A DNA stretch of 64,000 bases from a virus (taxonomy: Duplodnaviria; Heunggongvirae; Uroviricota; Caudoviricetes). The position numbers were made by a program, and so were the translations under genes. Below, piece after piece: positions 9,799 through 61,104 of this stretch. Positions within the stretch are counted from its first letter, which is position 1; every line of letters starts with the position of its first letter. Under the pieces are notes generated by a model. That model worked only from the letters and a program-made list of their open reading frames with translations, searched no databases and had not been told where the DNA came from. Location of the stretch: IMG/VR virus record IMGVR_UViG_3300028914_000001, positions 29,489 through 93,488 of that record, one strand, 5' to 3'.

Positions 9799-9874
9799 CA
9801 GTTCGCTCCTATGACCTCTTTACCATAATATAGGTAATTAAAGGCGTGTTGTAAAGGGAAGTTGTGTAAAATTT

Positions 9875-34687: not shown

Positions 34688-34694
34688 AATAAAC

Positions 34695-35145: not shown

Positions 35146-35160
35146 CCGAACCAATTCAAT

Positions 35161-43466: not shown

Positions 43467-44063
43467 TTAGAACTTTACCGTCGGGGCCACATCAGCGCCA
43501 GTAACAGCGGAGAACGGCACCTTCGGGGTCACTCCGGCGAATCCCGCCACGAAGACACCGGGGAATGTTCTGACCTTGTTGTTAAGGTTGTTGACTGCCA
43601 CATTGAACTGGCGTCTGGACTCGGCGATACGGTTTTCGCATCCTTCAAGCTGAACACGCAGGTCACGGAAAGCGGCGTTAGCCTTCAAGTTCGGATAGTT
43701 TTCTGTAACCATCATGAGACGCTGCAATGCTCCACCGAGGCTGTTCTGTGCTTCCTGGAACTTCTTCATTGCACGTTCGTCACTGAGCATGCTTTCATCC
43801 ATCTTAATCACGCCACCCATACGGCTACGAGCCTCGATGACTTCGGTGAGCGTACTCTTCTCGAAGTTGGCTTCGCCCTTCACCGTTTCGACGATGTTCG
43901 GAATAAGGTCGTAACGACGCTGGTACTGGTTTTCGACGTTAGCCCAGCTCATCTGCACACCGTTTTCAAGAGTGCGAAGGGAGTTGAACTGGCCGATGAA
44001 AGCGCATCCGCTGATAAAGGCGAGCACGACAATGACGATAAGTACGAGTTTACCCGTAGACAT
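43467..44063 (-). CDS. lemA: LemA-family membrane protein
   Basis: N-terminal TM, then NSLRTLENGVQMSWANVENQYQRRYDLIPN, YPNLKAN and LEGCENRIAESRR blocks typical of LemA. Confidence 0.8.
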   Translation of the reverse strand: MSTGKLVLIVIVVLAFISGCAFIGQFNSLRTLENGVQMSWANVENQYQRRYDLIPNIVETVKGEANFEKSTLTEVIEARSRMGGVIKMDESMLSDERAMKKFQEAQNSLGGALQRLMMVTENYPNLKANAAFRDLRVQLEGCENRIAESRRQFNVAVNNLNNKVRTFPGVFVAGFAGVTPKVPFSAVTGADVAPTVKF

Positions 44064-44101
44064 TTTATACCTCTTTGGTTTAGATTGTTGGTTTTGTTGA
44101 A

Positions 44102-44130
44102 AATATAGCATTTAACTTGGTGCTTGTCAA
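44102..44130 (-). promoter_or_regulatory. sigma70-type promoter
   Basis: TTGACA-N17-TATATT. Confidence 0.55.
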
Positions 44131-44133
44131 GGG

Positions 44134-44874
44134 CTACCATCCGCCATGACTTCCGCCACCGCCGAAACTGCCTCCGCCGAATCCGCTGCTGCCTCCGCCA
44201 CCCTTGCCTCCGCCAAGACATGACAGTATAACGAGAACGGTACTCAACACGGGAATATCAGTGAGCGCCTCGATGATACCAAGTAGGATTAGGACGACGA
44301 TTACTATGGCTACCACGATGGCTACCGTGGTTCCGCTCACCTTCTTTTCATCGGCAGGGGCGAGCTGAGCCGTATCAAGGGTTGCCGTGAGCGTAATCTT
44401 CTTCTCTTCTTGGACCTTCGTGGCAATCATGCTTGCAAGCTTGATGATGCCCTGACCACCCTCTCCACTCTGCAATGCGGGGATAAGGGAGGTCTGCTGC
44501 ATATGTTCCACGAGGACATCAGGCAAATACCCCTCGGAACCGTAACCCACATGTACGCCTCGGTAGTGCGGGTCCATCACGACATAGATGAATACACCCT
44601 CGTTCGAATCCTTGCTGCAGATTGCCCACTTCTGGGCTACACGCAAACTGAATTGAACCGGGTCTTCACCGTCAATCGTCTTGAATGTCGCCACGGCAAG
44701 GCCGAAACGAGCGTTCTTGGCAAGGTCGGACGCAATCGAATTTAATTGGTAGACCTGGTTTGCCGACATGATTCCCGCCCCGTCGTAAACGAACGAGTTG
44801 GTTGGAATCGGTGGGACCTCGATGGCCGAAACCAACGAGACAAGTAGCACTAATATGGCTAGGATTTTCTTCAT
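44134..44874 (-). CDS. TPM-domain (YgcG-like) protein with signal peptide, TM segment and Gly-rich tail
   Basis: Signal peptide, TPM-like core, TM helix, C-terminal GGGSFGGGGSHGGW; canonical LemA partner. Confidence 0.7.
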   Translation of the reverse strand: MKKILAILVLLVSLVSAIEVPPIPTNSFVYDGAGIMSANQVYQLNSIASDLAKNARFGLAVATFKTIDGEDPVQFSLRVAQKWAICSKDSNEGVFIYVVMDPHYRGVHVGYGSEGYLPDVLVEHMQQTSLIPALQSGEGGQGIIKLASMIATKVQEEKKITLTATLDTAQLAPADEKKVSGTTVAIVVAIVIVVLILLGIIEALTDIPVLSTVLVILSCLGGGKGGGGSSGFGGGSFGGGGSHGGW

Positions 44875-46042: not shown

Positions 46043-46993
46043 TTACCATCCTTGGGTTGTAACCTGAAGCAGGTCATGAATGTTTTCCTTACCCGTGAAC
46101 GAGTAACGCTTGTCCAGAGCTGCGGTGCTCATGCGGGCTACCTGCATGTTCGGAACGTCGATGTACATCGTGGCACAGGTGATGTTCCCGTCAGCATCCT
46201 TCACATCCGTGTCGGAACCCTGGAACAGCGTATTGAAATCCTTGTCAGAGATATTGAGAGCCGTCTTCGGGTCCAACTGTTCTATGCCGAGGCAGTCGAA
46301 CGACATCACCTTAAAGGGAAGAATCGAGCGCATCATCATGAATTTCAGCCAGTTGATATTAGCCTTGATTTCATCACTGTGCTTTTCAAGCATGGCATGA
46401 CCACGACGCAAATCCTTGTAACCAAGGATAAGCACCTTCCTGTCGCTCAATGCAGGGAGGTCCTTCGCAGTCAAGATGCCCGCAATGGTATGGATTACAA
46501 CATTGTCGCCGAGCGTGTCGATGAAGTCGAAGTCTTCCTTGTTGCTGGAATCCGTAAGCGAGATGCCGATACCGTGAACGAGACCGTCGCCCACAATCTT
46601 GCAGATGATGTCCTTGTACGGTTTCAGGTGACGCTGGTTGATTGTGATGTTTGCGATTACACCCTGTTCCTTCAAGCGTTCGAGGAACCAGACGAGGTCA
46701 GGATGGGCCAAGGCGTTGCCACCACCGATAGCGCACTCGGTTCCTGAATGAAGGGTAGCAATCATCGGTTCCAATGCCCTGAGGTCGCCATGCTTGCCAT
46801 TTACCGTAGAGTTTTCATGGCAGTAAACGCATCCACCGTCGCACTGGTCGGTAATCTTGATGTCAAAGTTCTCGGGAAAATCATATGTGAAATGGTCGGC
46901 CATCGGGTCGAGCGTTTCCTTGATTTTGGTGCCATCCGAGTAGATGGTCACCATATGGTTGCCGTTTGTATATGTGTTAAGTATCGTTCGCAT
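46043..46993 (-). CDS. radical SAM enzyme (QueE-like?)
   Basis: CDGGCVYC (CxxxCxxC) cluster at residues 50-57 and GGGNALAHPDL glycine motif. Confidence 0.65.
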   Translation of the reverse strand: MRTILNTYTNGNHMVTIYSDGTKIKETLDPMADHFTYDFPENFDIKITDQCDGGCVYCHENSTVNGKHGDLRALEPMIATLHSGTECAIGGGNALAHPDLVWFLERLKEQGVIANITINQRHLKPYKDIICKIVGDGLVHGIGISLTDSSNKEDFDFIDTLGDNVVIHTIAGILTAKDLPALSDRKVLILGYKDLRRGHAMLEKHSDEIKANINWLKFMMMRSILPFKVMSFDCLGIEQLDPKTALNISDKDFNTLFQGSDTDVKDADGNITCATMYIDVPNMQVARMSTAALDKRYSFTGKENIHDLLQVTTQGW

Positions 46994-46994
46994 C

Positions 46995-47972
46995 TTAGTC
47001 TCGCCAACGGTTTCTCTTCATTTCTTCAATGAATCCTTCGGGGTAGTACAATTCGTTAGACATTCCATTGTACGTTCCCGACATGTGAATGATTTCCGAC
47101 GTAGCCTTGTCGTAAGTCTGGCATGCAACGCAATGTCCGCAACGACCCTTGTATGTCGGGCTATAACAGAAGCTGCACAGTTCGATAGGGAAATGACGGT
47201 AGTTCAAGTTACGGATAATATCCGCCTTTGTCAGGAACTGAAGGGGATAGCTGAACATGATATTCTTCTGCCCAACCACCGTCAACAGATGCTCCTGTGC
47301 GGCAAGGATATTGTGCGACCAGTTCCAGAAGTCGTCACCCTTGTGATATCCGAAGTGGTAGCAGGTCTTATTCCTGCCACACAGAGATACCATCGAGGCC
47401 ATAAAGGGTTGTTGGAAAAGAGACGGTTCCGAACCGTTCCAGTTATCCATATTCCCTTCAAGCTTAATGAAATCTCGTTTAGGTTCATAGTCGTACTTCT
47501 TAGCGAGATATTCGAGAATCTTTTCCTGAGAAGCAACTTCAGACAAATAGTGATGGGATGTGCCAAACTGTTCACACCGGAAGCTGAGCAAGCGTGGCTT
47601 GATACCCTTTTCGAGCAAATCAACGAGAATAAGCGTACTGTCAAGACCACCACTGAATACTACCGCATTGTTGATAATATCTTCAAACTTCTTTGTAATA
47701 GGCTTTACTTCATGGAGCCTATCGAAGACCTTCTCTGCGGCAGATTTGAATTGGTGGGTTTCCTCAGGCGATTCGACATCGCACAAAACTTCTTCGGGAG
47801 CGGCGTCGCACAATTCCGCTTCATCTTTCTTTTCATCCTCAGCGTCCACCTTCAATTCAGCCTTATACGGCTTCTTTTTGGCCACGAGAGCTCGCTTCAA
47901 CAGGGTGCCGTATTTCGGTTTAGACTTTGTTTCTGGACGAATCTTTTCGTTTGATTGTTTCTTTTTAGTCAT
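46995..47972 (-). CDS. queC: QueC-like PP-loop ATPase (7-cyano-7-deazaguanine synthase family) with a Lys-rich N-terminal extension of about 100 aa
   Basis: VVFSGGLDST PP-loop; C-terminal C-x8-C-x2-C-x2-C zinc motif (CYSPTYKGRCGHCVAC) as in QueC. Confidence 0.65.
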   Translation of the reverse strand: MTKKKQSNEKIRPETKSKPKYGTLLKRALVAKKKPYKAELKVDAEDEKKDEAELCDAAPEEVLCDVESPEETHQFKSAAEKVFDRLHEVKPITKKFEDIINNAVVFSGGLDSTLILVDLLEKGIKPRLLSFRCEQFGTSHHYLSEVASQEKILEYLAKKYDYEPKRDFIKLEGNMDNWNGSEPSLFQQPFMASMVSLCGRNKTCYHFGYHKGDDFWNWSHNILAAQEHLLTVVGQKNIMFSYPLQFLTKADIIRNLNYRHFPIELCSFCYSPTYKGRCGHCVACQTYDKATSEIIHMSGTYNGMSNELYYPEGFIEEMKRNRWRD

Positions 47973-48620: not shown

Positions 48621-48886
48621 ATCCAAGCCCAATCGTTATCCCAAATGTATTCAATAACTTCTTTTGGAGTGCATAGAATTTCCTGTTCACCATTGCCATC
48701 TATGCAGATATAGTTCTTAGCATCCTCATCGTATATGATTTGACCATCCCCAAATCGAACCACATTACATGCTCGATGAATTGCAATGCCGTATCGCCTA
48801 TATTTGCCTAATACATTCATCAAGGAATCTACACCACGAGCATATCGTGGTGCATTGATTCCATATGTCTTTCTCTGACTACGCAT
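48617..48886 (-). CDS. hypothetical protein (89 aa)
   Basis: Track ORF immediately downstream of glf. Confidence 0.5.
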   Translation of the reverse strand: MRSQRKTYGINAPRYARGVDSLMNVLGKYRRYGIAIHRACNVVRFGDGQIIYDEDAKNYICIDGNGEQEILCTPKEVIEYIWDNDWAWI

Positions 48887-50142
48887 TAGACTAAACCAAA
48901 GATGCAGCCGGGTTCGGCAGGGTGTTCCGTAATCAATCTGTCATCGACCAATGCAGCCTTAATCACGTCGTCCATGTCCATGTACTTGTACAGACCGAGA
49001 CGGCCAGTAGGGACATACTTTTTCGGCAAGTAACCAATTATCTTCTGGTACTTTTCATTCTCGCTTGCAAGAGGATAGTATCGCTCGCACTTGCCACGTT
49101 CGTACTTCACAGGGTACTCATAAGTAACAAGGGTCTTTTGTTCGTCAAGTTGTTCATTGTTGAAGAACTTGTGCTCAATGCTCCTCGTGTACGCTACTTC
49201 TGGCGAAGTGTAGTTCACAACAGCATTTCCCTGCCAGTTGTCAGTAGGAAGCAGCTTCTCTTCAAACTTCAATGAACGCCAGTCAAGCCAGTAATCTTCA
49301 AACCCGTCCTCGTGAACAAGTCCAGCAAACAATTTGCTGTCGTTCATCAAAGAGTTCAACAGGTCTGATACATCACCAGAATAGAACACCTGGTCAAACT
49401 TGTTCTTGCTCATTCCATGTACACTGTGGTTGAATATATCTTCGCAGAAATCTTCACCATAGTGAATAGGATGCCCTTCGAACATGTTCTCAATCCATGT
49501 GGTATATCCTTCCTCGGGAATACCCTGATAGATGTCATTGAAGTAGTTGTTGTCGTAGGTGAACCTAAGCGGCAAACGCTTGATTATCCACGGTTCCAAC
49601 TCTGTGCATGGCTTTCCCCACTGCTTTTCAGTGTAGTGCTTAATCAACTTTTCATACACGGTAGTTCCAACAAGGGAGATTGCCTGTTCTTCAAGGTTCC
49701 TTGGGGATTCAAACGGATGTTCCTCCTTGTACCGTTTGATTTCGGCTTGAATAATACCTTTCACAATGCTAGGAGACACAATATTCACACCAAGATTCCG
49801 TTCGAACAAGCGAACAAATGTATTCATGTTGAACGGGAGATTGTAGGTCTCCGATTCCTTACTAGCCTGATTGTAATACACGGCAATCGGACTGTTCACA
49901 AAGTTGTTGAACTTAGCGAACTTGTTCGCAAACTTCCATACAGCAGGGTCAGACGTATGGAAGATATGTGCGCCATACTTGTGAACGGTGATACCTTCTA
50001 CCTTTTCAGTATAGCAGTTACCGCCAAGGTGTTTACGCTTCTCGATAATCGTGATGTCTGCCGGATTGACACCAAACTCATTAACGAGTCGCTGATAGAT
50101 TACTGCATTGTAAAGGCCCGCACCTACGAACAGATACTTCAT
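48886..50142 (-). CDS. glf: UDP-galactopyranose mutase
   Basis: N-terminal FAD-binding GxGxxG, HKYGAHIFHT, NLEEQAISLVG and YTEKQWG blocks near-identical to E. coli Glf; GGAGG RBS. Confidence 0.95.
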   Translation of the reverse strand: MKYLFVGAGLYNAVIYQRLVNEFGVNPADITIIEKRKHLGGNCYTEKVEGITVHKYGAHIFHTSDPAVWKFANKFAKFNNFVNSPIAVYYNQASKESETYNLPFNMNTFVRLFERNLGVNIVSPSIVKGIIQAEIKRYKEEHPFESPRNLEEQAISLVGTTVYEKLIKHYTEKQWGKPCTELEPWIIKRLPLRFTYDNNYFNDIYQGIPEEGYTTWIENMFEGHPIHYGEDFCEDIFNHSVHGMSKNKFDQVFYSGDVSDLLNSLMNDSKLFAGLVHEDGFEDYWLDWRSLKFEEKLLPTDNWQGNAVVNYTSPEVAYTRSIEHKFFNNEQLDEQKTLVTYEYPVKYERGKCERYYPLASENEKYQKIIGYLPKKYVPTGRLGLYKYMDMDDVIKAALVDDRLITEHPAEPGCIFGLV

Positions 50143-51041
50143 TCTGCGGCCTCCGCATAAAGTATTGTCGGCTGGTCCTTGTGGACGCCCGCACTGAACT
50201 CACCGACCGTCATGTTGAATCCAGTTACGTCAATCTTTTCATTAACCTTTCTGTAATTCTTCTCGATACGGTCGATATCCTCTTCCGTCAAATAAAGATG
50301 GTCAGAGGTTTCTTCAAGCTGTTCCTCGGGTCGAAGGAGTTCATTCAATGTTCTGATATCAACCTTGTTCTGCATAGCCCAGACCAGCACCGCATGCAAC
50401 ATACGATACTCTTCTGTCGGCTTCACAACGGTCGTCTGGTCGATATACTTCGAAGCATTGAACGGACGGACAATCAGGTGAATGCCAGTCCTTGACGGAA
50501 CACGAGCCACAATCATGTCCTTGGGGTCAACCTTCACGTTCATACCAGGCTGCATAATCTCCGCCTCGAACGCCTTTACAATAGGGCTGTCAACCGTGCA
50601 GTCGTCAAGGTCGATAAGCCATGTGGTGGTAGCTCTCGGTTCGGAACTTACCTTTCCACATGCCGTACTCATTGCACGGAACGGGTTGCGTTGCGGGTCA
50701 AGCTGATGATGTTCGAACTGCTTGGTGTCGTTCTCCTTGGCACGGTAGATGAACTCCCGGACATAGTGCCATCCGATGGCCGTGTAGTTACGACGGTTCA
50801 AACGGATATACGCACGGGCGTTGAACTCATGGCAGAGCTTGATGATTTCGTCACGGAGCTCTTCGAGGTGGCCTTCGTGGTTCAAGAGAATCTCTCGAAT
50901 CGTGCGGTCGCCATTGTTATGCTTTCCCTGGACATTGTTTCCATCCTTGGCACGAAGCAAGATTTCAAGGTAGTAGCAGTCGCCGACTCGTTCGAATTTA
51001 AGCAGACTGCTGATTAGTTTAAAGTTGTCTATAATTTTCAT
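50139..51041 (-). CDS. hypothetical protein (300 aa), translationally coupled to glf
   Basis: ATGA overlap with the glf start; GAGGCGAAC RBS. Confidence 0.6.
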   Translation of the reverse strand: MKIIDNFKLISSLLKFERVGDCYYLEILLRAKDGNNVQGKHNNGDRTIREILLNHEGHLEELRDEIIKLCHEFNARAYIRLNRRNYTAIGWHYVREFIYRAKENDTKQFEHHQLDPQRNPFRAMSTACGKVSSEPRATTTWLIDLDDCTVDSPIVKAFEAEIMQPGMNVKVDPKDMIVARVPSRTGIHLIVRPFNASKYIDQTTVVKPTEEYRMLHAVLVWAMQNKVDIRTLNELLRPEEQLEETSDHLYLTEEDIDRIEKNYRKVNEKIDVTGFNMTVGEFSAGVHKDQPTILYAEAAE

Positions 51042-51421
51042 GTTCGCCTCACGTATTCGGTTGATAATGTAAGGTAATGGTCTGTTATGTTATACCCCGT
51101 TATGGGGAGGATGTCACAAATCCTGACCTCCTCGGTATCCCTTCTTATATAAACAAATCTTCTTTGCCCGTTCAGAGGGATGTCATACGGATGTTCATAC
51201 GGGCGTGGCGGAAGCACCAGACGATAGCCGAGAGCAGTATCCGGGTCGCTAACCTGTTCACGAACCCTTGTCGGAACATAGTTCTCGTCGGAAAGGGTTA
51301 TGTATTCAGGTTCAACGACCTCTTCCTCTTCGACAAGAGGATAGTCGTCTTCATAGCCTTCTGGGGCCTCGATGACGACGAACTCGTCATCGTCCGATGA
51401 AACTACCGTTAGTTCCCCCAT
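51038..51421 (-). CDS. hypothetical acidic protein (127 aa)
   Basis: ATGA coupling to the downstream gene. Confidence 0.5.
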   Translation of the reverse strand: MGELTVVSSDDDEFVVIEAPEGYEDDYPLVEEEEVVEPEYITLSDENYVPTRVREQVSDPDTALGYRLVLPPRPYEHPYDIPLNGQRRFVYIRRDTEEVRICDILPITGYNITDHYLTLSTEYVRRT

Positions 51422-51705
51422 GTTCGAATTTCCTGTACCTTCGGTTCACGGGGAGCTGGCACCACCGTACCATCCTTCTCGACCCTGTCGCCCTGTCCAT
51501 ACAGGATGTGGTTGACAAAATCATACCGCACATGGCTGATAGCATGGCGAGGGAAACGGATGGTCAACGTAGTGTCGTTGAACTGGTATGTACCAATGTA
51601 TCCTTCGTCCGTCTTTACACTGGATGTGCGAACACCGTACTGGATATTCGGCTCACCAGCAAAGGCAAGAGCCACTCCCAAAAGGAGTGCTGCAATCGTT
51701 TTCAT
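51409..51705 (-). CDS. secreted or lipoprotein-like small protein (98 aa)
   Basis: Signal peptide MKTIAALLLGVALAFA. Confidence 0.5.
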   Translation of the reverse strand: MKTIAALLLGVALAFAGEPNIQYGVRTSSVKTDEGYIGTYQFNDTTLTIRFPRHAISHVRYDFVNHILYGQGDRVEKDGTVVPAPREPKVQEIRTWGN

Positions 51706-51884
51706 TACGCCCCCTTCTTCTTTGAACGGGATTCCGCCCTTTCCTTGGCCATCTTGGCTAGGCCCTTGTTCAATGCCTTCATGGAACGGTCGATACGACC
51801 AACGCTTGCGGCAGACTTCTTTTCACGGAATGTCTGGGTGGGTGCGAACTTTCCTGCTGTCTTTATATCATAGATGCTTTTCAT
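51705..51884 (-). CDS. small basic protein (about 59 aa), not in the ORF track
   Basis: AAGAGGAAAAT RBS; TAATG overlap with the next gene; follows the promoter at 51911-51939. Confidence 0.4.
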   Translation of the reverse strand: MKSIYDIKTAGKFAPTQTFREKKSAASVGRIDRSMKALNKGLAKMAKERAESRSKKKGA

Positions 51885-51910
51885 ATTTTCCTCTTATTTT
51901 ATCGCCCCAA

Positions 51911-51939
51911 AATATAGTACATTATTAACTACTTGGCAA
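51911..51939 (-). promoter_or_regulatory. sigma70-type promoter
   Basis: TTGCCA-N17-TATATT. Confidence 0.5.
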
Positions 51940-52396
51940 GAGGGGCGTCCATAAAATATAATTTTGTGCGGTCTTCTTTCATTTCATCGAACTGGGTAAA
52001 CAGGATTCGTTTAACCTCGTCTGGAGAGACTTTCCTAATACCTGGCCCGCTCACTTTCTCCATTTCCCCAGGATGACGGTTGCTTCTCCGATAAGTCTGC
52101 ATCGTCCACGGATTGTTTCCATCATGATTGGCGTCCTCGGCAATCTTCATGTACAGTTCCCATCGCAACGGATATGACGTACGGTAGAGCACACGGCCAT
52201 CCACGACCAGCGTGTAGTGGACATTCACCATGTCGTTCATGGGCTCTATACGGACATCCATCACCCGGATAACATGGTCAATCATGCTTGACGCACCTTC
52301 CTTATGCTCAATGTACTCGGCGACCGCATCGACGCCTTGATACTGATTGAAGAGTTCGTTACTCATCTTTCTTATAAATGCTTCATCCATACGCAT
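51929..52396 (-). CDS. hypothetical protein (155 aa)
   Basis: ATG (MRMDEAF...) 3 nt after the upstream stop. Confidence 0.5.
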   Translation of the reverse strand: MRMDEAFIRKMSNELFNQYQGVDAVAEYIEHKEGASSMIDHVIRVMDVRIEPMNDMVNVHYTLVVDGRVLYRTSYPLRWELYMKIAEDANHDGNNPWTMQTYRRSNRHPGEMEKVSGPGIRKVSPDEVKRILFTQFDEMKEDRTKLYFMDAPLAK

Positions 52397-52398
52397 CC

Positions 52399-52860
52399 CT
52401 AATGAATAAAATCGCAACTGTCAACAACGGCTTCCATAATCTTGGCCTTTTCTTCGTCGCTCAGCTTGGGCAAGTCATGATACGCATTGTCGATTTTCCA
52501 TTTGGCCTTCAACATCCAGTAGAAATCCCTCATGCGGTAGTCCATGTCTTCGAGGAGTTCTTTATCCTTTCCATCTTCGAAGAAAGCCAGCATTTCGGAA
52601 TTCAGGCTACCCTTTGAGGCAGTGTATCCTTCCTTCAACTGATTGCACTTCTGGGCGTGAACATACGCATCCTCTCGGTTGAGAAACACGATTTTACCAT
52701 CGACATTTGCGGCAAATCCATCCGTACCCAGATTATACACCCCATACACCTGCAGCAGGTGCTTGAAAGCCTCGCCATGGTCGTGACCATGTCCGAACGG
52801 GCACATTATCGGCTTTCCCGATTGAGTGAACTTGGATAGAGAAACGGCAGCGATAATCAT
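52399..52860 (-). CDS. hypothetical protein with a CxxxHGH motif (weak QueD/PTPS-like hint)
   Basis: CPFGHGHDHGE; TGGAGGAAATA RBS before the ATG at 52860. Confidence 0.45.
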   Translation of the reverse strand: MIIAAVSLSKFTQSGKPIMCPFGHGHDHGEAFKHLLQVYGVYNLGTDGFAANVDGKIVFLNREDAYVHAQKCNQLKEGYTASKGSLNSEMLAFFEDGKDKELLEDMDYRMRDFYWMLKAKWKIDNAYHDLPKLSDEEKAKIMEAVVDSCDFIH

Positions 52861-52872
52861 TATTTCCTCCAA

Positions 52873-53712
52873 TTAAATCGGCTTAGAACCGCACGCTCTG
52901 TATTGTTCGCTTCTGCACTTGTCGAAACAATTACCATTCATCATGAGTTCATCCCAAAGCTTAGTGAAGAATCCAGTTTCCTCTTCACAGGTCATCGCAC
53001 ACAGGCCGACACTATGTTTGGAAGCACACTTATGCCATACCGCAAGCTTCGGGGCGATTTCTTTCATGTGCCTTTTACGCTCCTCTTCCCGTTGCAGTTC
53101 AGCTGCGAGGAGGTCGTTACGGCCACTCATCCAACAGGTCACATTACCTTCCTCGTCGAAACATTTGGTCACGTCATCGACTTTCCAACGCTGCACCTCA
53201 CCCGTCGGATAGTACCATGTTTCTCGCCAAGTCTTCTCGTAAGGTTCCTTGACATAGACGGTCTTACCTTCAAGGTTATACACGAACTCCACATTGTCCT
53301 TGAACTCGTGTACCTTGGTTCCGTTAATGTACTCGCTATGGTCGTTATAGTTTCGCCAGTACACGATACCTTTACGGCGTTCGGCAATGATACGGCGACC
53401 AAGGTCGATAAGGGTAGTATCCTTCTTTTCGATGACTCGGTAGATATCGTTCCCGATATACTTTCCGCCTTTCATCTGCATGGTTTGAAGAACTGCAACC
53501 CATTCGGTCATCTTGTAGATTTCAAGATGCTGAGCTTCCAGGTCGTCAATACGGGAGTTCAACTCGTTGTTCATCTGAATGATGGTCGCTCTCGTCTGTT
53601 CTATCTTGTAATAGTTATCCAGAGCCTGACCCTTGAGGGCCGACACATCACCACGAATACCCGTTGTTGCGACATAGGCGCCAAAGGCACCAAGGAAAAG
53701 TTCAAAAAGCAT
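52873..53712 (-). CDS. membrane-anchored coiled-coil protein (279 aa)
   Basis: N-terminal TM; GGAGGCAGATAAAT RBS. Confidence 0.55.
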   Translation of the reverse strand: MLFELFLGAFGAYVATTGIRGDVSALKGQALDNYYKIEQTRATIIQMNNELNSRIDDLEAQHLEIYKMTEWVAVLQTMQMKGGKYIGNDIYRVIEKKDTTLIDLGRRIIAERRKGIVYWRNYNDHSEYINGTKVHEFKDNVEFVYNLEGKTVYVKEPYEKTWRETWYYPTGEVQRWKVDDVTKCFDEEGNVTCWMSGRNDLLAAELQREEERKRHMKEIAPKLAVWHKCASKHSVGLCAMTCEEETGFFTKLWDELMMNGNCFDKCRSEQYRACGSKPI

Positions 53713-53750
53713 ATTTATCTGCCTCCATGCAGTTGATTGTTACATGGATA

Positions 53751-53779
53751 AATATACATAATTAAATAACGCCTGTCAA
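53751..53779 (-). promoter_or_regulatory. sigma70-type promoter
   Basis: TTGACA-N17-TATATT with TTTAATTA in the spacer. Confidence 0.55.
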
Positions 53780-53790
53780 GGGGGTCATTC

Positions 53791-53959
53791 AAATTTAATG
53801 CAATTTTCTTTTAAACTTTCTGGATATTTCTAAATGAGCCAAGGGGTTGACGCCCTTTATGTGGGTAGACAGCAGCATATCGTCGTTGGAAACGGCATTC
53901 TCTTTCTTGAACCGTTCCTCAGCGGCAATAGCCTTTGCCCAGGTGTTCTTTCTTTTCAT
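53791..53959 (-). CDS. small basic protein (about 56 aa), not in the ORF track
   Basis: Open frame with ATG; weak RBS. Confidence 0.3.
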
Positions 53960-53965
53960 AACAAC

Positions 53966-54190
53966 TCATTTCAGTTTGAACCCAGTATGCTTAAACCTGT
54001 ATCCGAACGCCTTTCCGTCGTTAGCACATCCGACATCGCCAGACATGATATACATGCGCTCCTGTATCGAATGCTCTAAATCCTTCTCGACCGCTTTAAC
54101 GAGGGCATCGTCAGCAAGACCGAAGCTGCTGTAAGTTTCGACTTCCAGGTCTATTACCAGTTTTTTCTTAATCAAAATCTTGTTAGGCAT
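53966..54190 (-). CDS. hypothetical protein (74 aa)
   Basis: Track ORF with an ATG start. Confidence 0.45.
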   Translation of the reverse strand: MPNKILIKKKLVIDLEVETYSSFGLADDALVKAVEKDLEHSIQERMYIMSGDVGCANDGKAFGYRFKHTGFKLK

Positions 54191-54346
54191 CTTCTTCCTT
54201 TAAGATATGGATAGTTTCAATGTTTTCACCGAACTTGCTGTAAATCCAGTCAAGGAGTGACTTGCGGTCCTCGGCTTCATGCTCCATGTTGTGAACGAAC
54301 TTCTCGTTCTTGAAGTTCTCTATAACCACGAAAAAGTACGCTTTCA
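54185..54346 (-). CDS. small hypothetical protein (about 54 aa), not in the ORF track
   Basis: GAGGTAGAAG RBS; the stop overlaps the next start codon. Confidence 0.35.
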
Positions 54347-54350
54347 TCTT

Positions 54351-54722
54351 CTACCTCGAATTAGGTTTAATTTTACACTTGTTCTTCTTGACTGAATAGA
54401 TTGCACCCGATTCAAGAGGGATTGTCGTAACCTCGTCCTCCTGCATAAACCTGCATACCATCGAATAGTGTACCGTCATCACAGTGCCCGTATAATCAGT
54501 AGTCGTACTCACGCATGCCCCGCATGGCGTAGTCACGATTACCTCATTGTTCTTGAATATCTTAATGGAATGTCCATCCTCCCAGAACTCCTCGGGATGT
54601 TCCTTGCGGTATTTTTCACGAGACTCGTGATATTTTTGTAAACAAGTAAGTACGAACCCGGCAATAAATACCAGCCCAATAACAAACAAGATTAACCAAT
54701 AATAACGCTTTATGAAACTCAT
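54351..54722 (-). CDS. membrane protein (123 aa)
   Basis: N-terminal TM; ATGA overlap upstream. Confidence 0.5.
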   Translation of the reverse strand: MSFIKRYYWLILFVIGLVFIAGFVLTCLQKYHESREKYRKEHPEEFWEDGHSIKIFKNNEVIVTTPCGACVSTTTDYTGTVMTVHYSMVCRFMQEDEVTTIPLESGAIYSVKKNKCKIKPNSR

Positions 54723-55201
54723 GCCAACCTCATGTTATAGTCGATAATTTTATCCTTCAAGCGTTCTATCATGCGATTTCGCACGATTTCCAGTTCGAAC
54801 GGGCTTCTCGACTTATCTTCGTATCCAGCAAGAAGATTGTCGATATCCTTGATTGTATGGACATCGTTCAACATATTGTCAAAATACCCAAGGTTCAGCA
54901 TATCGGTAAGGCTAGGGCTTGCCATCTTGCTCAGCCTAATCGCATTATCGGTATCGGAAAGCCACTTCCACCCCTGAGGCGTAAGGTAGCCTTTTACCAC
55001 ATCACATGACGCAACTATCAGATGGCTGCCCCTTTCCCAAATCAATTCAATCAGCTCTTCACGATTCATCGAAGTGGCCACCATCCACATATTTTCAATA
55101 TAATGGGACCAGTGTTCGCAAACCCGCTTTATGATTCCGTGAATTTTATCTGTATTTTGTGCATCGGTAACGATGATGTAGAAGTTAAGTTCCTTAGTCA
55201 T
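54719..55201 (-). CDS. hypothetical protein (160 aa)
   Basis: CCGAGGCTAAGCAAA RBS. Confidence 0.55.
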   Translation of the reverse strand: MTKELNFYIIVTDAQNTDKIHGIIKRVCEHWSHYIENMWMVATSMNREELIELIWERGSHLIVASCDVVKGYLTPQGWKWLSDTDNAIRLSKMASPSLTDMLNLGYFDNMLNDVHTIKDIDNLLAGYEDKSRSPFELEIVRNRMIERLKDKIIDYNMRLA

Positions 55202-55511
55202 TTTGCTTAGCCTCGGGACTTTTATTCATGATTAAGTGCGGATAGAGACGTTCCTTGTTCTCATCAATCCACTCCAACAGTTCTGCAATCGCAGAAACCT
55301 CGGTTTCCGTAAATTCCTTTATGGGTTTCTTTTTGAATTTGTCGAGAAACACATAGGTGATATGGTTGTCAGGATGAAACTTCTGGATAATGCGTATCCT
55401 GGAACCAGAAAGTTCGTACTCCCTGATTTTGCAACCAGTTGATACTTCGCCATGCCAGAAACTCTTCTTGGTTTCGCTATACCATGAACTCATATAAGAA
55501 AAACTAATCAT
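55194..55511 (-). CDS. hypothetical protein (105 aa)
   Basis: GAAGGAATAATG RBS. Confidence 0.5.
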   Translation of the reverse strand: MISFSYMSSWYSETKKSFWHGEVSTGCKIREYELSGSRIRIIQKFHPDNHITYVFLDKFKKKPIKEFTETEVSAIAELLEWIDENKERLYPHLIMNKSPEAKQND

Positions 55512-55517
55512 GCTGCA

Positions 55518-56063
55518 TTATTCCTTCGGTGATGGTTTCAGTTTTTCCAACTCCATGATAATGGAATCAGTGGTCCTGAAATCCGTCCCATCGTAAATAT
55601 CGCACAAGAGACCCGCTCTACTTGGCGACCAATATTCTTTGTAAACCTCTTCCCAGAATGACTCACGAAGCTCCCAGTCAGGCAAGTCAAACCCATCATC
55701 AGTCTGGTTTTGATACCAGAACTCTCGAAGTTCAACATTTTCCTTCAAGAACTTAGCCGTCGCATTGCTCGGAAAGAACTGCAAGGCGATGTAGTTAACC
55801 CCGTTCACTTCCCGTGCGAACAAGGTACACTGAAGTTGATAATCCCAGAGCCCACCTTTTTCTGGACACTTGGTATCATCTTCCAACTGTTTTAGACGCC
55901 CAAAATTGTCCAGCTCCAACAGCTTAGGCCATTTCAACATGTCGTTCGGGACCCACTTGATGAACTTCTGGCGCAATTCGTTGACATATTTAGTCGCTTC
56001 GTAAATGTCCTTAAACTCTGCATTTTCCTTGAAGAGATATGCGTAAAACACTCTCATGCTCAT
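55518..56063 (-). CDS. hypothetical protein (181 aa)
   Basis: AAAGAGGAAACCAT RBS. Confidence 0.55.
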   Translation of the reverse strand: MSMRVFYAYLFKENAEFKDIYEATKYVNELRQKFIKWVPNDMLKWPKLLELDNFGRLKQLEDDTKCPEKGGLWDYQLQCTLFAREVNGVNYIALQFFPSNATAKFLKENVELREFWYQNQTDDGFDLPDWELRESFWEEVYKEYWSPSRAGLLCDIYDGTDFRTTDSIIMELEKLKPSPKE

Positions 56064-56353
56064 ATGGTTTCCTCTTTGTTAAATAAGTTTGCGATTTCAG
56101 GAAAGTCCTCTAATTTCACACTCCTCTTAGGGAACATGTGGTCTAACAACATTGTCACGCATTCACGTCTGTCAGACGGCAACGAATCAGTCAAGATGTC
56201 GTACGTCGGCGCATTTTTTCCAGTGAAGTGTATGGCTGCACCTACCGTATAATGCTCAACAGAAACATCCATCTGGTTTAGTCCGGCAACTGCAACAAAC
56301 GCACAGGCAATGCGATGCCCAAGCAATCCTTCTAATACTTTAAGTGCATCCAT
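56060..56353 (-). CDS. hypothetical protein (97 aa)
   Basis: AAAGGGGTCCCG RBS. Confidence 0.5.
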   Translation of the reverse strand: MDALKVLEGLLGHRIACAFVAVAGLNQMDVSVEHYTVGAAIHFTGKNAPTYDILTDSLPSDRRECVTMLLDHMFPKRSVKLEDFPEIANLFNKEETI

Positions 56354-56355
56354 AT

Positions 56356-56474
56356 TACGGGACCCCTTTTACGATATAGGTTACAATAGCAATGAGTATA
56401 CCCCAGGACACCACACACGCCGACATGATGCTCACCAGGCATACCGCAGGACTGTATCTTTCTTTGGCTTTCAT
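56356..56474 (-). CDS. tiny membrane protein (about 39 aa), not in the ORF track
   Basis: GGAGGTTTAGCG RBS; single TM helix. Confidence 0.35.
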
Positions 56475-56476
56475 CG

Positions 56477-57250
56477 CTAAACCTCCACGGTAAAATCGTC
56501 TGCGGTCAAATTGTGCAAAGCGAACGGAGTTTCCCGGTCGCTGCCATAGCCAAGCGGATTCAACATGACCTGTGTATCGCCAATCATCAGCTTATGAGCA
56601 TCGTGAGTATGACCACAGCCCCAGTATTTGATTCCCGCATAGTCGAACTGTCCAATGTTGAAATAGAAAAACTTATTCTTATCAGAACCACGGTATTTCG
56701 GATTAATGTTACATTGCCACGGTGCAAAATGGCTCAACACAATAGTCGGCTTAGCACCCGTGACAATTTCAAGCTTACGCCTTTCGTTATAGGCAACGTC
56801 CTCAATATCGGCATCCTTTCCCCAATATTTACCGTCATACCATGTAGTCTCCCATTCATATTCAGTGTGAAGGTCATACTTTACGTAATCCCAAATTCCC
56901 ATCGTACCACCAATGAGAATATTGTCAACCATGGTAAGGTTCTGACTGGTTCCCAACAGGGTAGCATTGTTTAACTTAGACGCAAAGTCTTCAATACGCT
57001 TTATCTTTTCCGCAGTAGTCTTAATATCGGGGTCCCATTCCACAGTCAAGTCGTGGTTGCCAAGGACAAAGACGAACTGCTTGCATGAGTTCGATATAAA
57101 CGACAGGCATTGCTGGATTGTCGCTAGGTTGTCCCCATAGTCCCCAGAAAGCACAAGTAAGTCAGCGCCCTTACCATACGCCTCAATCTGTTTTCTTTTT
57201 TCCTCAGTAGCATATTCATAATGAATGTCTGACAGAAACTTCACTTTCAT
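56477..57250 (-). CDS. calcineurin-like metallophosphoesterase
   Basis: DxH (LSDIHYE), GDxxD (LSGDYGD), GNHD (VLGNHD) and GHxH (CGHTHD) motifs; CTGGAGATAAAT RBS. Confidence 0.8.
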   Translation of the reverse strand: MKVKFLSDIHYEYATEEKRKQIEAYGKGADLLVLSGDYGDNLATIQQCLSFISNSCKQFVFVLGNHDLTVEWDPDIKTTAEKIKRIEDFASKLNNATLLGTSQNLTMVDNILIGGTMGIWDYVKYDLHTEYEWETTWYDGKYWGKDADIEDVAYNERRKLEIVTGAKPTIVLSHFAPWQCNINPKYRGSDKNKFFYFNIGQFDYAGIKYWGCGHTHDAHKLMIGDTQVMLNPLGYGSDRETPFALHNLTADDFTVEV

Positions 57251-57598
57251 ATTTATCTCCAGGTGGATGTCTATAATAAAAAATATAAATAAATAAACAA
57301 TTTGTCAATAGGCGCTTCAATATTTTTAATTAAATTGATTGTAAATACTTTTTTACATAAATCATCCACAATAACCTTATAGACTTAGTACAATAAACTA
57401 TATGTATGGACCATGGAAAGACTATCATGAAAATTCAGATGTTGGTTATAGGAGCCCACATACTGAGAAAACGAGAAGAAGGCGTAGATGAATCATCTAA
57501 CGTCCTCGCTAGGCAGTGGATTGACGAACACGGCCTAGAATTCAGGAAGCTTTTCCAAACCGTCAGCAGCATAGTGAAATAATTATTTATATTGCCCC

Positions 57599-57627
57599 TT
57601 GACAACCCGTTTTTAATTTTGTATATT
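57599..57627 (+). promoter_or_regulatory. sigma70-type promoter
   Basis: TTGACA-N17-TATATT with TTTTAATTTTG in the spacer. Confidence 0.6.
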
Positions 57628-57657
57628 AGAGGGTAAACGTATAAAATGAGGTACACT

Positions 57658-58221
57658 ATGCAAACTGAACCTAATATCAAAGATACAGATATGGCTGGTA
57701 CCGCTGATGTATCAAGCGGAGCAGAAAATATGGTCAATCAATCTGCTGCACCAGCCCAAGAAACAACTACAACACCCAAAAAGCGTGGACGCAAGAAAGG
57801 ATACCACCATTCAGAAGCGACCAAAGCCCAAATGAGACGAGCACGCATTGGTGTACATCCATCGGAAGAAACGAAGGAAAAGATTTCCAAATCCAAGGAA
57901 GGCAAGACTCAGTCGGAAACGGCGAAGCTCAAAATGAGCGACACCCGTCGTTACAACTTCCTCCGAAAGAAGATTGAATCCGCCTTACACGGAACGTCAA
58001 CAATAGTTGATGTCGTTGCGCTTTTCAACCGAAAGGACGCAATCACTGTAACCATGTCAGAGTTCGCAGAGAACATATACAAAATCGCACACGACAAGGT
58101 CGATGGACTCATTAACACAAAGGCTGACCGAAAGGCACAAAATGCCGCCTATAAGGAAATCCTCAGACAAATCAAGGAGCTTTACAATGAGCGAATCAAA
58201 GAACTCTCAAACGCAAACTAA
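57658..58221 (+). CDS. NUMOD3-repeat DNA-binding protein (no nuclease domain detected)
   Basis: Two G..H(S)E(E/A)TK..(I/M)...G NUMOD3 motifs; GAGGT RBS. Confidence 0.5.
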   Translation: MQTEPNIKDTDMAGTADVSSGAENMVNQSAAPAQETTTTPKKRGRKKGYHHSEATKAQMRRARIGVHPSEETKEKISKSKEGKTQSETAKLKMSDTRRYNFLRKKIESALHGTSTIVDVVALFNRKDAITVTMSEFAENIYKIAHDKVDGLINTKADRKAQNAAYKEILRQIKELYNERIKELSNAN

Positions 58222-58855
58222 CGAAGAAGAGGCCGAACACGAAAAGGTTGTATTCGACGAAATGGGGTTCCCGGAGCGTGAACGCCCGAAATCGTTGAGC
58301 GACCTGATACGGTTCTGCAAGAACCGCCTAGGGAAGAATGCCGAGTTCGGGTATTGGGACGATAAAGGGTTTCCTGCATGCACTTACTACAAGGCGTTCC
58401 TTGGCCTCCTAGGGAATGGTATTCTTGCATACGATAGCGAGGAAATGATTGCACAATGCGCAGAAGATTGCGACATGTCGTATGAAGAGGCGATGGAGGC
58501 TCTCGACTACAACACATTCTGCTGCTACATGGGCCCCCAGACTCCTAAGCACATCACTCCTGTCAAGTTCCCCGAGAATCCCGAAGAGGAATTCAAAGAG
58601 ATGGAAGGAGACATGCTCACGTACATTCCTGACTGCGACAACGCCCTTGTCGGATTCATGGAAACACCTACCGGGCTTTGCTGCGTTTACAACATGAAGC
58701 TTCTTCCTGACTCTGTGAAGAACTGCAAGTACATGAGACGAGACCTACTGCTCGACCCGTACGAAAAGATTCCGTTCGACCGACAGGCCTTGAAAAAGAA
58801 GCTCGAAGCCGCAAAGGCAAAAAAGGCTAAGAAGAAGGCTAAGCATAGACGCTGA
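58187..58855 (+). CDS. hypothetical protein with a Lys-rich tail (222 aa)
   Basis: AAGGAG RBS; overlaps the previous gene by 35 nt. Confidence 0.5.
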   Translation: MSESKNSQTQTNEEEAEHEKVVFDEMGFPERERPKSLSDLIRFCKNRLGKNAEFGYWDDKGFPACTYYKAFLGLLGNGILAYDSEEMIAQCAEDCDMSYEEAMEALDYNTFCCYMGPQTPKHITPVKFPENPEEEFKEMEGDMLTYIPDCDNALVGFMETPTGLCCVYNMKLLPDSVKNCKYMRRDLLLDPYEKIPFDRQALKKKLEAAKAKKAKKKAKHRR

Positions 58856-58905
58856 CGCCTCTTCCTACCTTGATAAACTTTATGCGAATTGGGCAGGTAA
58901 CTAAA

Positions 58906-59301
58906 ATGACTTACGAGAAATTTTGCAACATAATGAGAAAGAGCAGACTGCTTTCAAAGGTCAGCGTAATCAATTCTGACAGGCAGTATTGCATCATCGA
59001 CAGAAAATGCCCCGAGCGGAAAGTAATCATCGCCCCGTCGGACAACGGAGGCGTTACGGTTGCTTTCAACAAGGTCGGCATTGGCAGCTACCCGTTCAAG
59101 TCACTTCACCTGACCCTATCCGCAAATGCGGTTTTCGACATCCCGCCTCAGGAGATGCAAACGAGCATTGACGTAAATATTCTTTTACATTGGGCAATAT
59201 CCGAATGTTTCCTCGGAAAGCCAGAACGTCCGTTACTGAAACGGATGTGGATAAAGATGATAAGGACGTGGCAGCACTTCCTTATCAGGTTCAGACATTA
59301 A
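58906..59301 (+). CDS. hypothetical protein (131 aa)
   Basis: ATG inside the track ORF. Confidence 0.45.
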   Translation: MTYEKFCNIMRKSRLLSKVSVINSDRQYCIIDRKCPERKVIIAPSDNGGVTVAFNKVGIGSYPFKSLHLTLSANAVFDIPPQEMQTSIDVNILLHWAISECFLGKPERPLLKRMWIKMIRTWQHFLIRFRH

Positions 59302-59966
59302 GCCCAGCTGGGCAGTTTATCCGTCAATGTCTTGTCGAAGACGGTACGCTTTGCGTCATATATCCTGAATCCATTGTATCTAAACCACGGTTCCATGAAG
59401 TATTCGCAAATATACCCATCAATTCGTGGGCTTTTAAACTTATGGATTTCATCAAAGTCTTTAAGAACCCCATTGAATATAAAATCAAAGAACATATTGG
59501 CAAGTCCCTTACGGCAAATAAACATGTTTCCAAGGTAAATATGGTCACCAATAAAGTTCGTTTTAAAATAGTTCGCCATATCTTTGCCGAAATTCACCTG
59601 GACGACGGCCAAGCCTAGTGCAAGTTCATTGCGCTTCCCGGTCATAGTCATGTGTTCCATGGCGTTCTGTTTCAATTCACTCCTGAACATGATGACATCA
59701 TTCTTTTTAAGGATGCCACGTATTTCGAAATCAGAAAGCAGGGTTCCGTTATCGTTGGTGAAGTACCTTCTATAATGTTCAAGGCCTACGATATCGTCAT
59801 TACAATGCTTCCATAGGTAATACATGCCCGTAAGCTCACTATACCAAGGGTTGAGCGAATCTATATTATCGCCATCATGGTCAACATCGACCAAGAACTT
59901 CTCCCTAATATCATCAAGAGGTCGAAACTTGGTTTTGCTGCTTCCTACAACATATATCTTAGTCAT
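59298..59966 (-). CDS. DUF4422-family protein (putative glycosyltransferase of polysaccharide loci)
   Basis: MTKIYVVGSSK...NPWYSELTGMYYLWKH matches the DUF4422 signature; start overlaps the GT2 stop. Confidence 0.6.
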   Translation of the reverse strand: MTKIYVVGSSKTKFRPLDDIREKFLVDVDHDGDNIDSLNPWYSELTGMYYLWKHCNDDIVGLEHYRRYFTNDNGTLLSDFEIRGILKKNDVIMFRSELKQNAMEHMTMTGKRNELALGLAVVQVNFGKDMANYFKTNFIGDHIYLGNMFICRKGLANMFFDFIFNGVLKDFDEIHKFKSPRIDGYICEYFMEPWFRYNGFRIYDAKRTVFDKTLTDKLPSWA

Positions 59967-61104
59967 GGGCCAACCCAGCCTTCTTTTCTTCCAGTTTCTT
60001 GACAAATCTCTGAACATCGGCGTCAAATGAATTTAATTCAGGTACATCACCGACATCCCCAAAGAACGCCTCATTGTTCTGTACCGTCCGAGAATCTGGA
60101 TGTATAGCCTTCGCCATCTCATGATACCGCTTTCCAGTCAGCTTGTCTCCAGTGTACCAGTAGCAGCAGCTGAGCCAAATCAGGCTCAAGAAATTGAATT
60201 CGGTATCCTCCTTGAAATACTCGCTAGTGTGGCCAAGACCGTTCACGATGGCAAGGAAATACATAGCCGCCTCCTTGTACTTCTTCGTGTTGTACAAGGC
60301 CAATGCGCAGTTGTATAGAAGACGGTTGCTCATCCCGTACTTGACGATGGACCGGGCCAGGAAGGAAATCATGTCCTCAGTCATTCCGGCATTGCCGATG
60401 ATTTCTGCGGACATCCGTGTAGCCTCGATACAGTCCTCAACCCAAGAATCATTCTGCTTGAAGAACTTGGAAAACCATTCGAGAGCCTCCTCGTTTTCTC
60501 CATTCCAATACAGCTCCTTAGCAAAGTAGAGCATATCCCTCGTGTTGAACTTTACATTCTCCTTCAACTTTTCTTTGAAGATTGCCAGGTTCCTTCCCGA
60601 ATCACGAGCAATGCTGTTTGCGGGCTTGCTATGAGTAACAGTGAAGTCCAAAGTTATTCTGGGTGTAGTCGATGCCAGATACTCATGAACGAATCCTGCC
60701 CATCGGCATGAACCTCTCTTAATGATACGTGTTACCGTAGTCGTCAGGTCATTACCTACATAGTACTTCGCCATGAAGGCGTCGCACACAAATGAGGACA
60801 AGGTATGTTTATACTCATTGATAGCTCTCTGGTTAGCCTCGTCAATGACATCGTCACAATCCAGCCACATCACATAGTCCTGTGTAGCTTTGTCGAAACT
60901 AAAATTCCTTGCTGCGGAAAAATCATTTATCCACTTGAAGTCGAATACCTTGTCAGTATACTTGGATGCGATTTCCTTTGTGTTGTCGGTCGAACCCGTA
61001 TCAACAACGACAATCTCGTCAGCGAACGACTTTACACATTCAAGACACCTTCCTATAACCTCGGATTCATTCTTAGCAATGATGCAAACGCTCAATGTAC
61101 TCAT
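59959..61104 (-). CDS. family-2 glycosyltransferase with C-terminal TPR-like repeats
   Basis: CIIAKNESEVIGRCL...DEIVVVDTGSTD...DDFSAARN...DCDD GT-A fold motifs. Confidence 0.85.
   Translation of the reverse strand: MSTLSVCIIAKNESEVIGRCLECVKSFADEIVVVDTGSTDNTKEIASKYTDKVFDFKWINDFSAARNFSFDKATQDYVMWLDCDDVIDEANQRAINEYKHTLSSFVCDAFMAKYYVGNDLTTTVTRIIKRGSCRWAGFVHEYLASTTPRITLDFTVTHSKPANSIARDSGRNLAIFKEKLKENVKFNTRDMLYFAKELYWNGENEEALEWFSKFFKQNDSWVEDCIEATRMSAEIIGNAGMTEDMISFLARSIVKYGMSNRLLYNCALALYNTKKYKEAAMYFLAIVNGLGHTSEYFKEDTEFNFLSLIWLSCCYWYTGDKLTGKRYHEMAKAIHPDSRTVQNNEAFFGDVGDVPELNSFDADVQRFVKKLEEKKAGLAHD

Follow-up and report, generated by a model that had tools for sequence, protein, structure and literature searches.

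We analysed a 64,000-nt window (positions 29,489 to 93,488 of the IMG/VR record IMGVR_UViG_3300028914_000001, Caudoviricetes) that encodes a UDP-galactopyranose mutase (UGM, Glf) and two glycosyltransferases, one of the DUF4422/GT111 family and one of family GT2 with a TPR-like helical domain (GT2-TPR). The four open reading frames (ORFs) that an earlier reading of the bare letters, hereafter the sequence-only reading, had grouped as glycan-modification genes were all confirmed on the minus strand, and together with their overlaps they lie as follows:

48886-50142, minus strand: UGM/Glf, 418 aa (Pfam GLF, 3e-48; NAD_binding_8, 4.6e-16)
50139-50142, minus strand: ATGA overlap between the TGA stop of the 300-aa gene and the ATG start of the UGM gene, read from the sequence
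50139-51041, minus strand: 300-aa protein, probable AEP-fold nucleotidyltransferase with a helical insertion of ~85 aa
59298-59966, minus strand: DUF4422/GT111-family glycosyltransferase, 222 aa, candidate galactofuranosyltransferase (Pfam DUF4422, 3.4e-31)
59959-59966, minus strand: 8-nt overlap ATGACTAA, with the DUF4422 start codon inside the end of the GT2-TPR gene, read from the sequence
59959-61104, minus strand: GT2 (GT-A) glycosyltransferase with a C-terminal TPR-like helical domain, 381 aa, SunS/ThuS/GmaR type (Pfam Glycos_transf_2, 2.2e-22)

The window is an accessory-gene region of an uncultured megaphage of roughly 422 kb. Proteins identical to those it encodes occur on a JGI contig of 422,009 bp (3300037453, Ga0394155_0000002) as well as on several contigs from ENA and Logan, and because this JGI contig is rich in small phage-type genes, the original assignment of this DNA to a phage is borne out. 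When the UGM region was compared by megablast with 50,697 deposited phage genomes, no near-identical DNA was returned; the phage is therefore not a sequenced isolate. The visible DNA amounts to ~15% of the genome, the remaining ~358 kb lying outside the window, and the Pfam scan covered about 90 window ORFs, most of which had no Pfam match. The interval that holds the genes listed above is part of a long array of small genes, mostly on the minus strand, in which 9 of 15 consecutive gene junctions overlap by 1-19 nt. The genes listed above are intact and under purifying selection relative to their relatives (ratio of nonsynonymous to synonymous substitution rates, dN/dS, 0.08-0.20), and a scan for sigma-70 promoters and terminators yielded nothing above shuffled expectation.

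The UDP-galactopyranose mutase

By its sequence, the product of 48886-50142 is securely placed in the UGM family. Its GLF match (PF03275) spans model positions 1-203 of 203, the N-terminal FAD/NAD Rossmann domain is present, and it aligns with the structurally characterised enzymes of Campylobacter jejuni (4mo2, E 1e-88) and Escherichia coli (1i8t, E 1e-85). The blocks HKYGAHIFHT, NLEEQAISLVG, YTEKQWG, IIKRLPLRFTYDNNYF, YQGIP, YTRSIEHK, YYP and GRLGLYKYMDM are all kept in the alignment to these two proteins, so the description of its signature blocks as almost identical to those of bacterial UGMs was a fair one. The dinucleotide motif reads G-A-G-L-Y-N, with Asn replacing the third Gly, and the same substitution is found in the UGM of another megaphage (L006; handles beginning with L denote loci of relatives). 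At the position of C. jejuni Arg59, which we take to be linked to the use of UDP-GalNAc, the window UGM has His, as in E. coli. At 418 aa, compared with about 362-368 aa in other UGMs, it carries ~50 extra residues distributed over several insertions, which probably explains why its TIGR00031 score of 271.4 bits falls under the equivalog cut-off of 303.75. The sequence-only reading had named loss-of-function alleles in natural variants as evidence against a role for the enzyme; none were seen, relatives of 88-90% identity being undisrupted with a dN/dS of 0.16-0.20. The protein belongs to phrog_9677 (7.6e-95), and likewise phage-borne UGMs with 37-47% identity to it are found in Streptococcus suis and Lactobacillus prophages, in the Pootjesviridae of Rhizobium and Agrobacterium, and in Aeromonas phages.

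A candidate galactofuranosyltransferase

The DUF4422 protein, whose possible role the sequence-only reading missed, is on sequence grounds the best candidate for the transferase of galactofuranose (Galf). It scores 109 bits against the Pfam gathering cut-off of 25. Its longest ORF (59298-60026, with a TTG start at 60026) would overlap the GT2-TPR gene by 68 nt; the conserved protein begins at the ATG at 59966 (MTKIYVV...), which is the likely start, and on identical contigs gene callers picked either one. The overlap between these two genes described earlier is thus real, but it measures 8 nt from the likely start instead of 68 nt.

The sole match of the protein in the PDB is WbbM (6u4b), with E 7e-06 in a pairwise comparison and 3.9e-21 when a phage-clade profile was used; the invariant signature of this clade is GDNI..NPWY.ELT..YY.WK...VGLEHYRR. 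DUF4422 defines family GT111, in which only one member has been characterised, the N-terminal domain of Klebsiella WbbM, a UDP-Galf transferase, and in Kingella kingae the predicted GT111 gene pamA adjoins the UGM gene pamB (PMC12269835). The phage protein shares its Pfam family with the WbbM that accompanies Glf in Klebsiella pneumoniae O2a, and the pamA-pamB pairing is matched in the phage relatives described below. Unlike WbbM, the phage protein consists of this domain alone (222 aa), without a GT8 fusion, its UGM lies about 9 kb away, its gene is not part of an O-antigen locus that includes an ABC exporter, and the pairwise similarity of the two proteins is confined to two blocks.

The nearest homologs (43-82% identity) are proteins of ~220 aa, many of them on phage contigs of 130-424 kb. 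In every relative of at least 43% identity from another huge phage, a UGM of 361-362 aa is located within 5 kb of the DUF4422 gene (L006, 68% identity; L016, 60%; L014, 59%; L015, 51%; L021, 45%; L017/18, 43%). One to three more DUF4422 paralogs, a cytidylyltransferase and a phosphotransferase of LicD, Stealth or TagF-like type usually accompany the gene at these loci. A UGM lies within 10 kb of DUF4422 at 9 of 33 viral loci, distant phage copies (at most 42% identity) usually being without one, and at 3 of 39 bacterial-genome loci, a set made up mostly of Lachnospiraceae fragments with partial matches. This last count suggests that the donor specificity of GT111 may be broader than Galf; from these sequence associations, Galf specificity appears well supported for the phage clade and not for the DUF4422 family as a whole. 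Between the window and L006 the DUF4422 proteins are 68% identical and the UGMs 47%, which suggests lateral acquisition of the transferase from a Galf cluster. The GT111 phage clade is absent from PHROGs v4, and our literature search found no paper describing GT111/DUF4422 in phages.

The GT2-TPR glycosyltransferase

The GT2-TPR protein retains the invariant motif D82-x-D84-D85. The TPR repeats attributed to it in the sequence-only reading are weakly evident to Pfam (ANAPC3, 0.0069) and are seen as an all-helical repeat domain at residues ~171 to 380 of an AlphaFold2 model (predicted local distance difference test, pLDDT, 91.4). Its sequence matches in the PDB are Listeria GmaR (3.6e-32), SunS (1.2e-19) and ThuS (9e-16), and in a full-length Foldseek search SunS and ThuS (7msn, 7msk) were retrieved at E ~1e-18 (TM-score 0.61), followed by TarP, TarS, RmlT and other GT-A enzymes at ~1e-8, ten orders of magnitude worse. 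GmaR transfers GlcNAc to flagellin, and the TPR domain that follows its catalytic domain is thought to recognise the protein substrate (PMC9638930). Among PHROGs the protein falls in phrog_13126 (7e-39), with weak matches to GtrB-like families (3e-07), and it is part of a very large family of TPR-containing GT2 proteins of ~355 aa from Firmicutes (36-40% identity). Of the two bacterial homologs whose surroundings we inspected, one has as its neighbours a gene for a BclA-like collagen exosporium protein and many genes of sugar modification, and the other lies beside an Ena spore-appendage gene.

The closeness to GmaR, SunS and ThuS in both sequence and fold favours a protein acceptor, and we consider the enzyme to be probably a protein-directed glycosyltransferase; its relatives that are characterised or have an informative context all point to glycosylation of proteins or peptides in the cytoplasm. 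With SunS/ThuS and GmaR it shares the order of domains, a GT-A GT2 domain first and a TPR-like helical one after it, and it departs from each of them. Its best NCBIfam model is the SunS family TIGR04195, where it scores 71 bits, far under the equivalog cut-off of 350; and because no genes for a glycocin precursor, an exporter or a thiol-disulfide oxidoreductase were present among the window ORFs, it is not a glycocin synthase. GmaR has an anti-repressor domain that the 381-aa phage protein is without, and the latter is nearer to the ~355-aa Firmicute proteins encoded beside BclA-like and Ena genes.

The 300-aa gene beside the mutase

The 300-aa protein had been left without an annotation, and indeed Pfam, NCBIfam and the PDB offered no match to its sequence. 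It had also been proposed as the Galf transferase or an acceptor-specific factor, coupled to the mutase through the ATGA overlap. The overlap is real; since 9 of the 15 junctions in the array overlap, it says little about partnership, and a special coupling is rejected. The protein belongs to phrog_14949, a family of at least 140 metagenomic and phage proteins that are mostly about 200 aa long and whose invariant residues include R76, Y78, N82, D144, D146, G186 and H188. In a confident AlphaFold model (52 sequences, pLDDT 86.9), the D-x-D and G-x-H motifs fall on predicted strands, as do motifs I and II of AEP enzymes, and Foldseek of the model against the PDB returned nothing significant. The model argues for an AEP (archaeo-eukaryotic primase, primase-polymerase-like) fold nucleotidyltransferase, an assignment that is probable, not certain.

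Family members occur in five unrelated phage contexts, namely Cellulophaga phage phi17:2, the crAss-like cr116_1 and three other huge contigs (members at L001 4007-4615, L002 3998-4624, L009/L010 5001-5978, L011 5001-5891 and L012/L013 5001-5726), where the neighbours are a CCA-adding enzyme, PARP, DNA/RNA ligases (Rnl1), KTI12/AAA_33 polynucleotide-kinase-like proteins, Thg1 and a TROVE-like DUF2828 protein. A UGM is never found beside the family in these five contexts, and the adjacency is restricted to close relatives of the window phage. We accordingly rejected the 300-aa gene both as a conserved partner of UGM, its distant family members residing in RNA-repair neighbourhoods, and as a glycosyltransferase, given the probable AEP-like fold, the invariant DxD and G-x-H motifs and these same contexts. 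It is an unrelated AEP-like gene merely packed against the UGM gene. The family may be an AEP-type enzyme acting in tRNA or RNA repair instead of DNA priming.

Distribution among relatives

At least five variants of the lineage (L007, L008 and L087-L089) keep a 351-aa GT2-TPR protein of 72-76% identity, together with the AEP-like gene and UGM ~8.5 kb from it, and in these variants an unrelated reverse-strand ORF (around 11056) replaces DUF4422. The DUF4422 gene and a 30-residue C-terminal extension of GT2-TPR are found in the window and in two contigs whose proteins are 82-99% identical. It follows that GT2-TPR and UGM form the conserved pair, with DUF4422 as a sub-lineage insertion that looks like a recent add-on to a lineage already equipped with the other two. 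The contigs of the relatives were fragments or 20-kb stretches. The extension (59959-60051 of the window, minus strand) is a low-pLDDT C-terminal helix that appears to have come with the DUF4422 insertion, and in L087-L089 an 86-aa Tad2-like (PF11195) gene lies at 9642-9902, about 100 bp upstream of GT2-TPR.

Compact glycan clusters were observed on other phage contigs of 130-424 kb (L006 8510-16673, L014 4970-11661, L015 5132-12799 and L016 7328-14274), each with two to four DUF4422/GT111 paralogs, a UGM and a cytidylyltransferase, to which LicD, Stealth, TagF-like glycerophosphotransferase, TOD1/MUCI70-like or GT92-like genes are added. Such a content points to polymers that contain Galf and bear phosphodiester-linked substituents; neither an exporter nor a priming enzyme was visible in the four clusters. 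The best bacterial-genome matches of the phage DUF4422 clade (L048, JAFXNA010000004.1, 317 kb; L049/L050, NZ_JBGUHR010000060.1; L051/L052, JBGVBD01) are on long contigs binned to rumen metagenome-assembled genomes that carry the labels Bacteroidaceae, Fibrobacter and Prevotella. Since the DUF4422 copies on them correspond to those found on IMG/VR megaphage contigs (e.g., L048 and L020), these long contigs are probably mis-binned phage DNA.

Protein glycosylation as the favoured explanation

Since the phage encodes UGM and two glycosyltransferases, a Galf-adding function, as the sequence-only reading proposed, is a reasonable reading of the locus. The explanation that we tentatively favour, with a confidence a little short of even, is a small soluble Galf kit in which GT2-TPR would prime a protein acceptor and GT111 would add Galf. 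UGM, as homology indicates, would convert host UDP-galactopyranose to UDP-galactofuranose; GT2-TPR would attach the first sugar to a Ser, Thr or Cys residue of some protein in the cytoplasm of the infected cell, the acceptor most likely being a phage virion protein; and the co-translated GT111 enzyme would add Galf to that first sugar, producing a glycan coat that could alter recognition of the particle or target protein. Neither UGM, DUF4422 nor GT2-TPR has a transmembrane segment, and the search of the 64-kb window brought up no gene for a flippase, a polymerase, an ABC exporter or a priming phosphoglycosyltransferase. Of the acceptors envisaged in the sequence-only reading, protein gains support from the GmaR/SunS/ThuS-like character of GT2-TPR, and DNA is left without partner genes in the window. 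A precedent exists in mycobacteriophages (Freeman et al. 2023, as cited in PMC12619734), where, according to that citation, soluble phage glycosyltransferases act in the cytoplasm to glycosylate capsid and tail proteins of the phage itself, which corresponds to the acceptor model favoured here. The analogy is one of function.

Several points weigh against protein glycosylation. A search of the window for a Ser/Thr-rich or collagen-like acceptor gave no credible candidate, recovering just a TPM-domain protein and a pair of short ORFs that look spurious; the structural genes are not in the window. Because overlaps are generic in this genome, the one between GT2-TPR and DUF4422 is weak evidence of partnership, and the two genes are independently distributed, other megaphage Galf clusters having DUF4422 without GT2-TPR. 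In the relatives that are without DUF4422, another enzyme must use UDP-Galf, whether GT2-TPR or the product of a gene beyond the fetched DNA. The sole characterised GT111 acts on lipid-linked O-antigen, not on a glycoprotein (PMC12269835), a mere 3 of the 39 bacterial DUF4422 loci have a UGM within 10 kb, and the clusters of the relatives hold LicD, Stealth, TagF-like and cytidylyltransferase genes that are typical of cell-surface polymers.

Alternative explanations

The last of these points bear on the main rival, host-surface remodelling, in which Galf units would be added to lipid-linked capsule, lipopolysaccharide or teichoic-type intermediates of the host and exported by host flippases, so that superinfection is blocked or recognition altered. 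We regard it as possible, while leaning against it. WbbM, the characterised GT111, builds undecaprenyl-linked O-antigen (PMC12269835), the closest DUF4422 relatives cluster with genes for LicD, Stealth, a TagF-like glycerophosphotransferase and cytidylyltransferases, and Iyer et al. 2021 read the glycosyltransferase clusters of jumbo phages in this way (PMC7824862). The GtrB-like PHROG matches of GT2-TPR would also suit O-antigen conversion, but at 3e-07 they are far weaker than the match to phrog_13126 (7e-39), and the enzyme resembles protein and peptide glycosyltransferases ten orders of magnitude better than polymer glycosyltransferases of the TarP/TarS type. Moreover, a surface pathway has to be reconciled with three enzymes devoid of transmembrane segments and with a window and four related clusters in which no GtrA-type flippase, GtrC-type membrane transferase, Wzx/Wzy, ABC exporter or priming enzyme was found. 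A Gtr seroconversion module (GtrA/GtrB/GtrC) in particular was rejected, on account of the weak GtrB-like matches, the want of any transmembrane segment and the absence of GtrA and GtrC from the window.

It is quite unlikely, in our judgement, that GT2-TPR is itself the Galf transferase, adding Galf directly to protein with DUF4422 as an optional second transferase for the same or another donor. SunS and ThuS use UDP-GlcNAc or UDP-Glc as donors, which counts against this role. GmaR, which transfers GlcNAc, likewise uses a donor of this kind (PMC9638930). Family GT2 does include the Galf transferases GlfT2 and PamC (PMC12269835), and the distribution of the genes fits, GT2-TPR and UGM being kept in all close relatives and DUF4422 being absent beside GT2-TPR in L007, L008 and L087-L089; a second DUF4422 could nonetheless lie elsewhere in those relatives, as megaphages often carry several dispersed copies.

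DNA hypermodification, with UDP-Galf used to glycosylate a hydroxylated or hydroxymethylated base and thereby evade restriction, is very improbable. This is the role proposed for the UGM of Pootjesviridae, which shares a gene cluster for DNA hypermodification with a ThyA-like 5hodCMP synthase; the DNA of RL38J1 contains 5-hydroxycytosine hexosylated with galactose first, and UDP-Galf from the phage UGM has been proposed in the pathway (PMC13326640). UGMs of Rhizobium and Agrobacterium phages are among the tblastn matches of the window UGM (37-38% identity), DNA glycosyltransferases of GT-A fold exist (10.1101/2023.12.21.572611), and QueC-like and radical-SAM genes lie 1-3 kb from the window UGM. 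Against these stands the gene content, for among the ~90 window ORFs (15% of the genome) there is no ThyA-like 5-hydroxy- or hydroxymethyl-pyrimidine synthase, 5mC dioxygenase, C5-methyltransferase, DpdA/TGT or DNA glycosyltransferase of the T4/JGT type. Both glycosyltransferases are of other classes, and the Galf clusters of the relatives hold polymer-type phosphotransferases, not genes of nucleotide metabolism.

Significance

PHROGs already lists phage UGMs (phrog_9677) and GT2-TPR proteins (phrog_13126), and the pairing of UGM with GT111 is known in bacteria; as a set of sugar-modifying genes in a phage, what the window holds is fairly ordinary and does not amount to a new kind of system. 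What is new is the assignment of a GT111 clade specific to phages, which in megaphages is often linked to UGM, and its combination with a SunS/GmaR-type enzyme. The role of Galf transferase is here reassigned to DUF4422/GT111, the 300-aa gene is dropped as a false partner, and the clade proves to be widespread in phage contigs of 200-420 kb, often beside UGM, cytidylyltransferases, and LicD, Stealth or TagF-like enzymes. The kinship of GT2-TPR to protein glycosyltransferases leads to the prediction of Galf on megaphage proteins. Galf is immunogenic and, to our knowledge, absent from mammals; if the prediction is true, Galf-coated phage particles in the gut or rumen would matter for phage-host-immune interactions. 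A broader proposition, which we hold to be unlikely though worth stating, is that rumen and gut megaphages encode cytoplasmic Galf-glycan pathways (in the relatives also phosphodiester-linked and teichoic-acid-like) that act through the phage GT111 clade on their own virion proteins, here by way of a SunS/GmaR-type enzyme. If true, these would be the first Galf-glycosylated phage particles, and GT111 would be extended from lipid-linked O-antigen to protein glycan synthesis.

Other genes in the window

Additional features with assigned positions are the following:

33494-34705, minus strand: RtcB RNA ligase
35074-35149, minus strand: tRNA-Leu(taa)
43467-44874, minus strand: LemA-TPM domain pair
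46043-47972, minus strand: QueC-like PP-loop protein, 325 aa, and an abutting radical-SAM protein, 316 aa
56477-57250, minus strand: metallophosphoesterase

The 64-kb window also encodes an M29 peptidase, an SPFH protein and a GNAT protein. When other glycan genes, DNA-modification partners and exporters were sought in 58 further window ORFs, only a DUF1848 protein, the peptidyl-tRNA hydrolase PTH2 and a NUMOD3 protein turned up. The QueC similarity of the 325-aa PP-loop protein is confined to its C-terminus, with a weak match to QatC, and the 316-aa radical-SAM protein belongs to phrog_16999 and has weak MoaA-like matches. Neither DpdA/TGT nor QueD, QueE or FolE was found in the 64-kb window, which makes this pair unlike the standard 7-deazaguanine pathway; the pair is kept in the identical contigs. 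With RtcB, tRNA-Leu, PTH2, their neighbours and the AEP-like gene, this part of the genome looks like an accessory region for translation and RNA repair.

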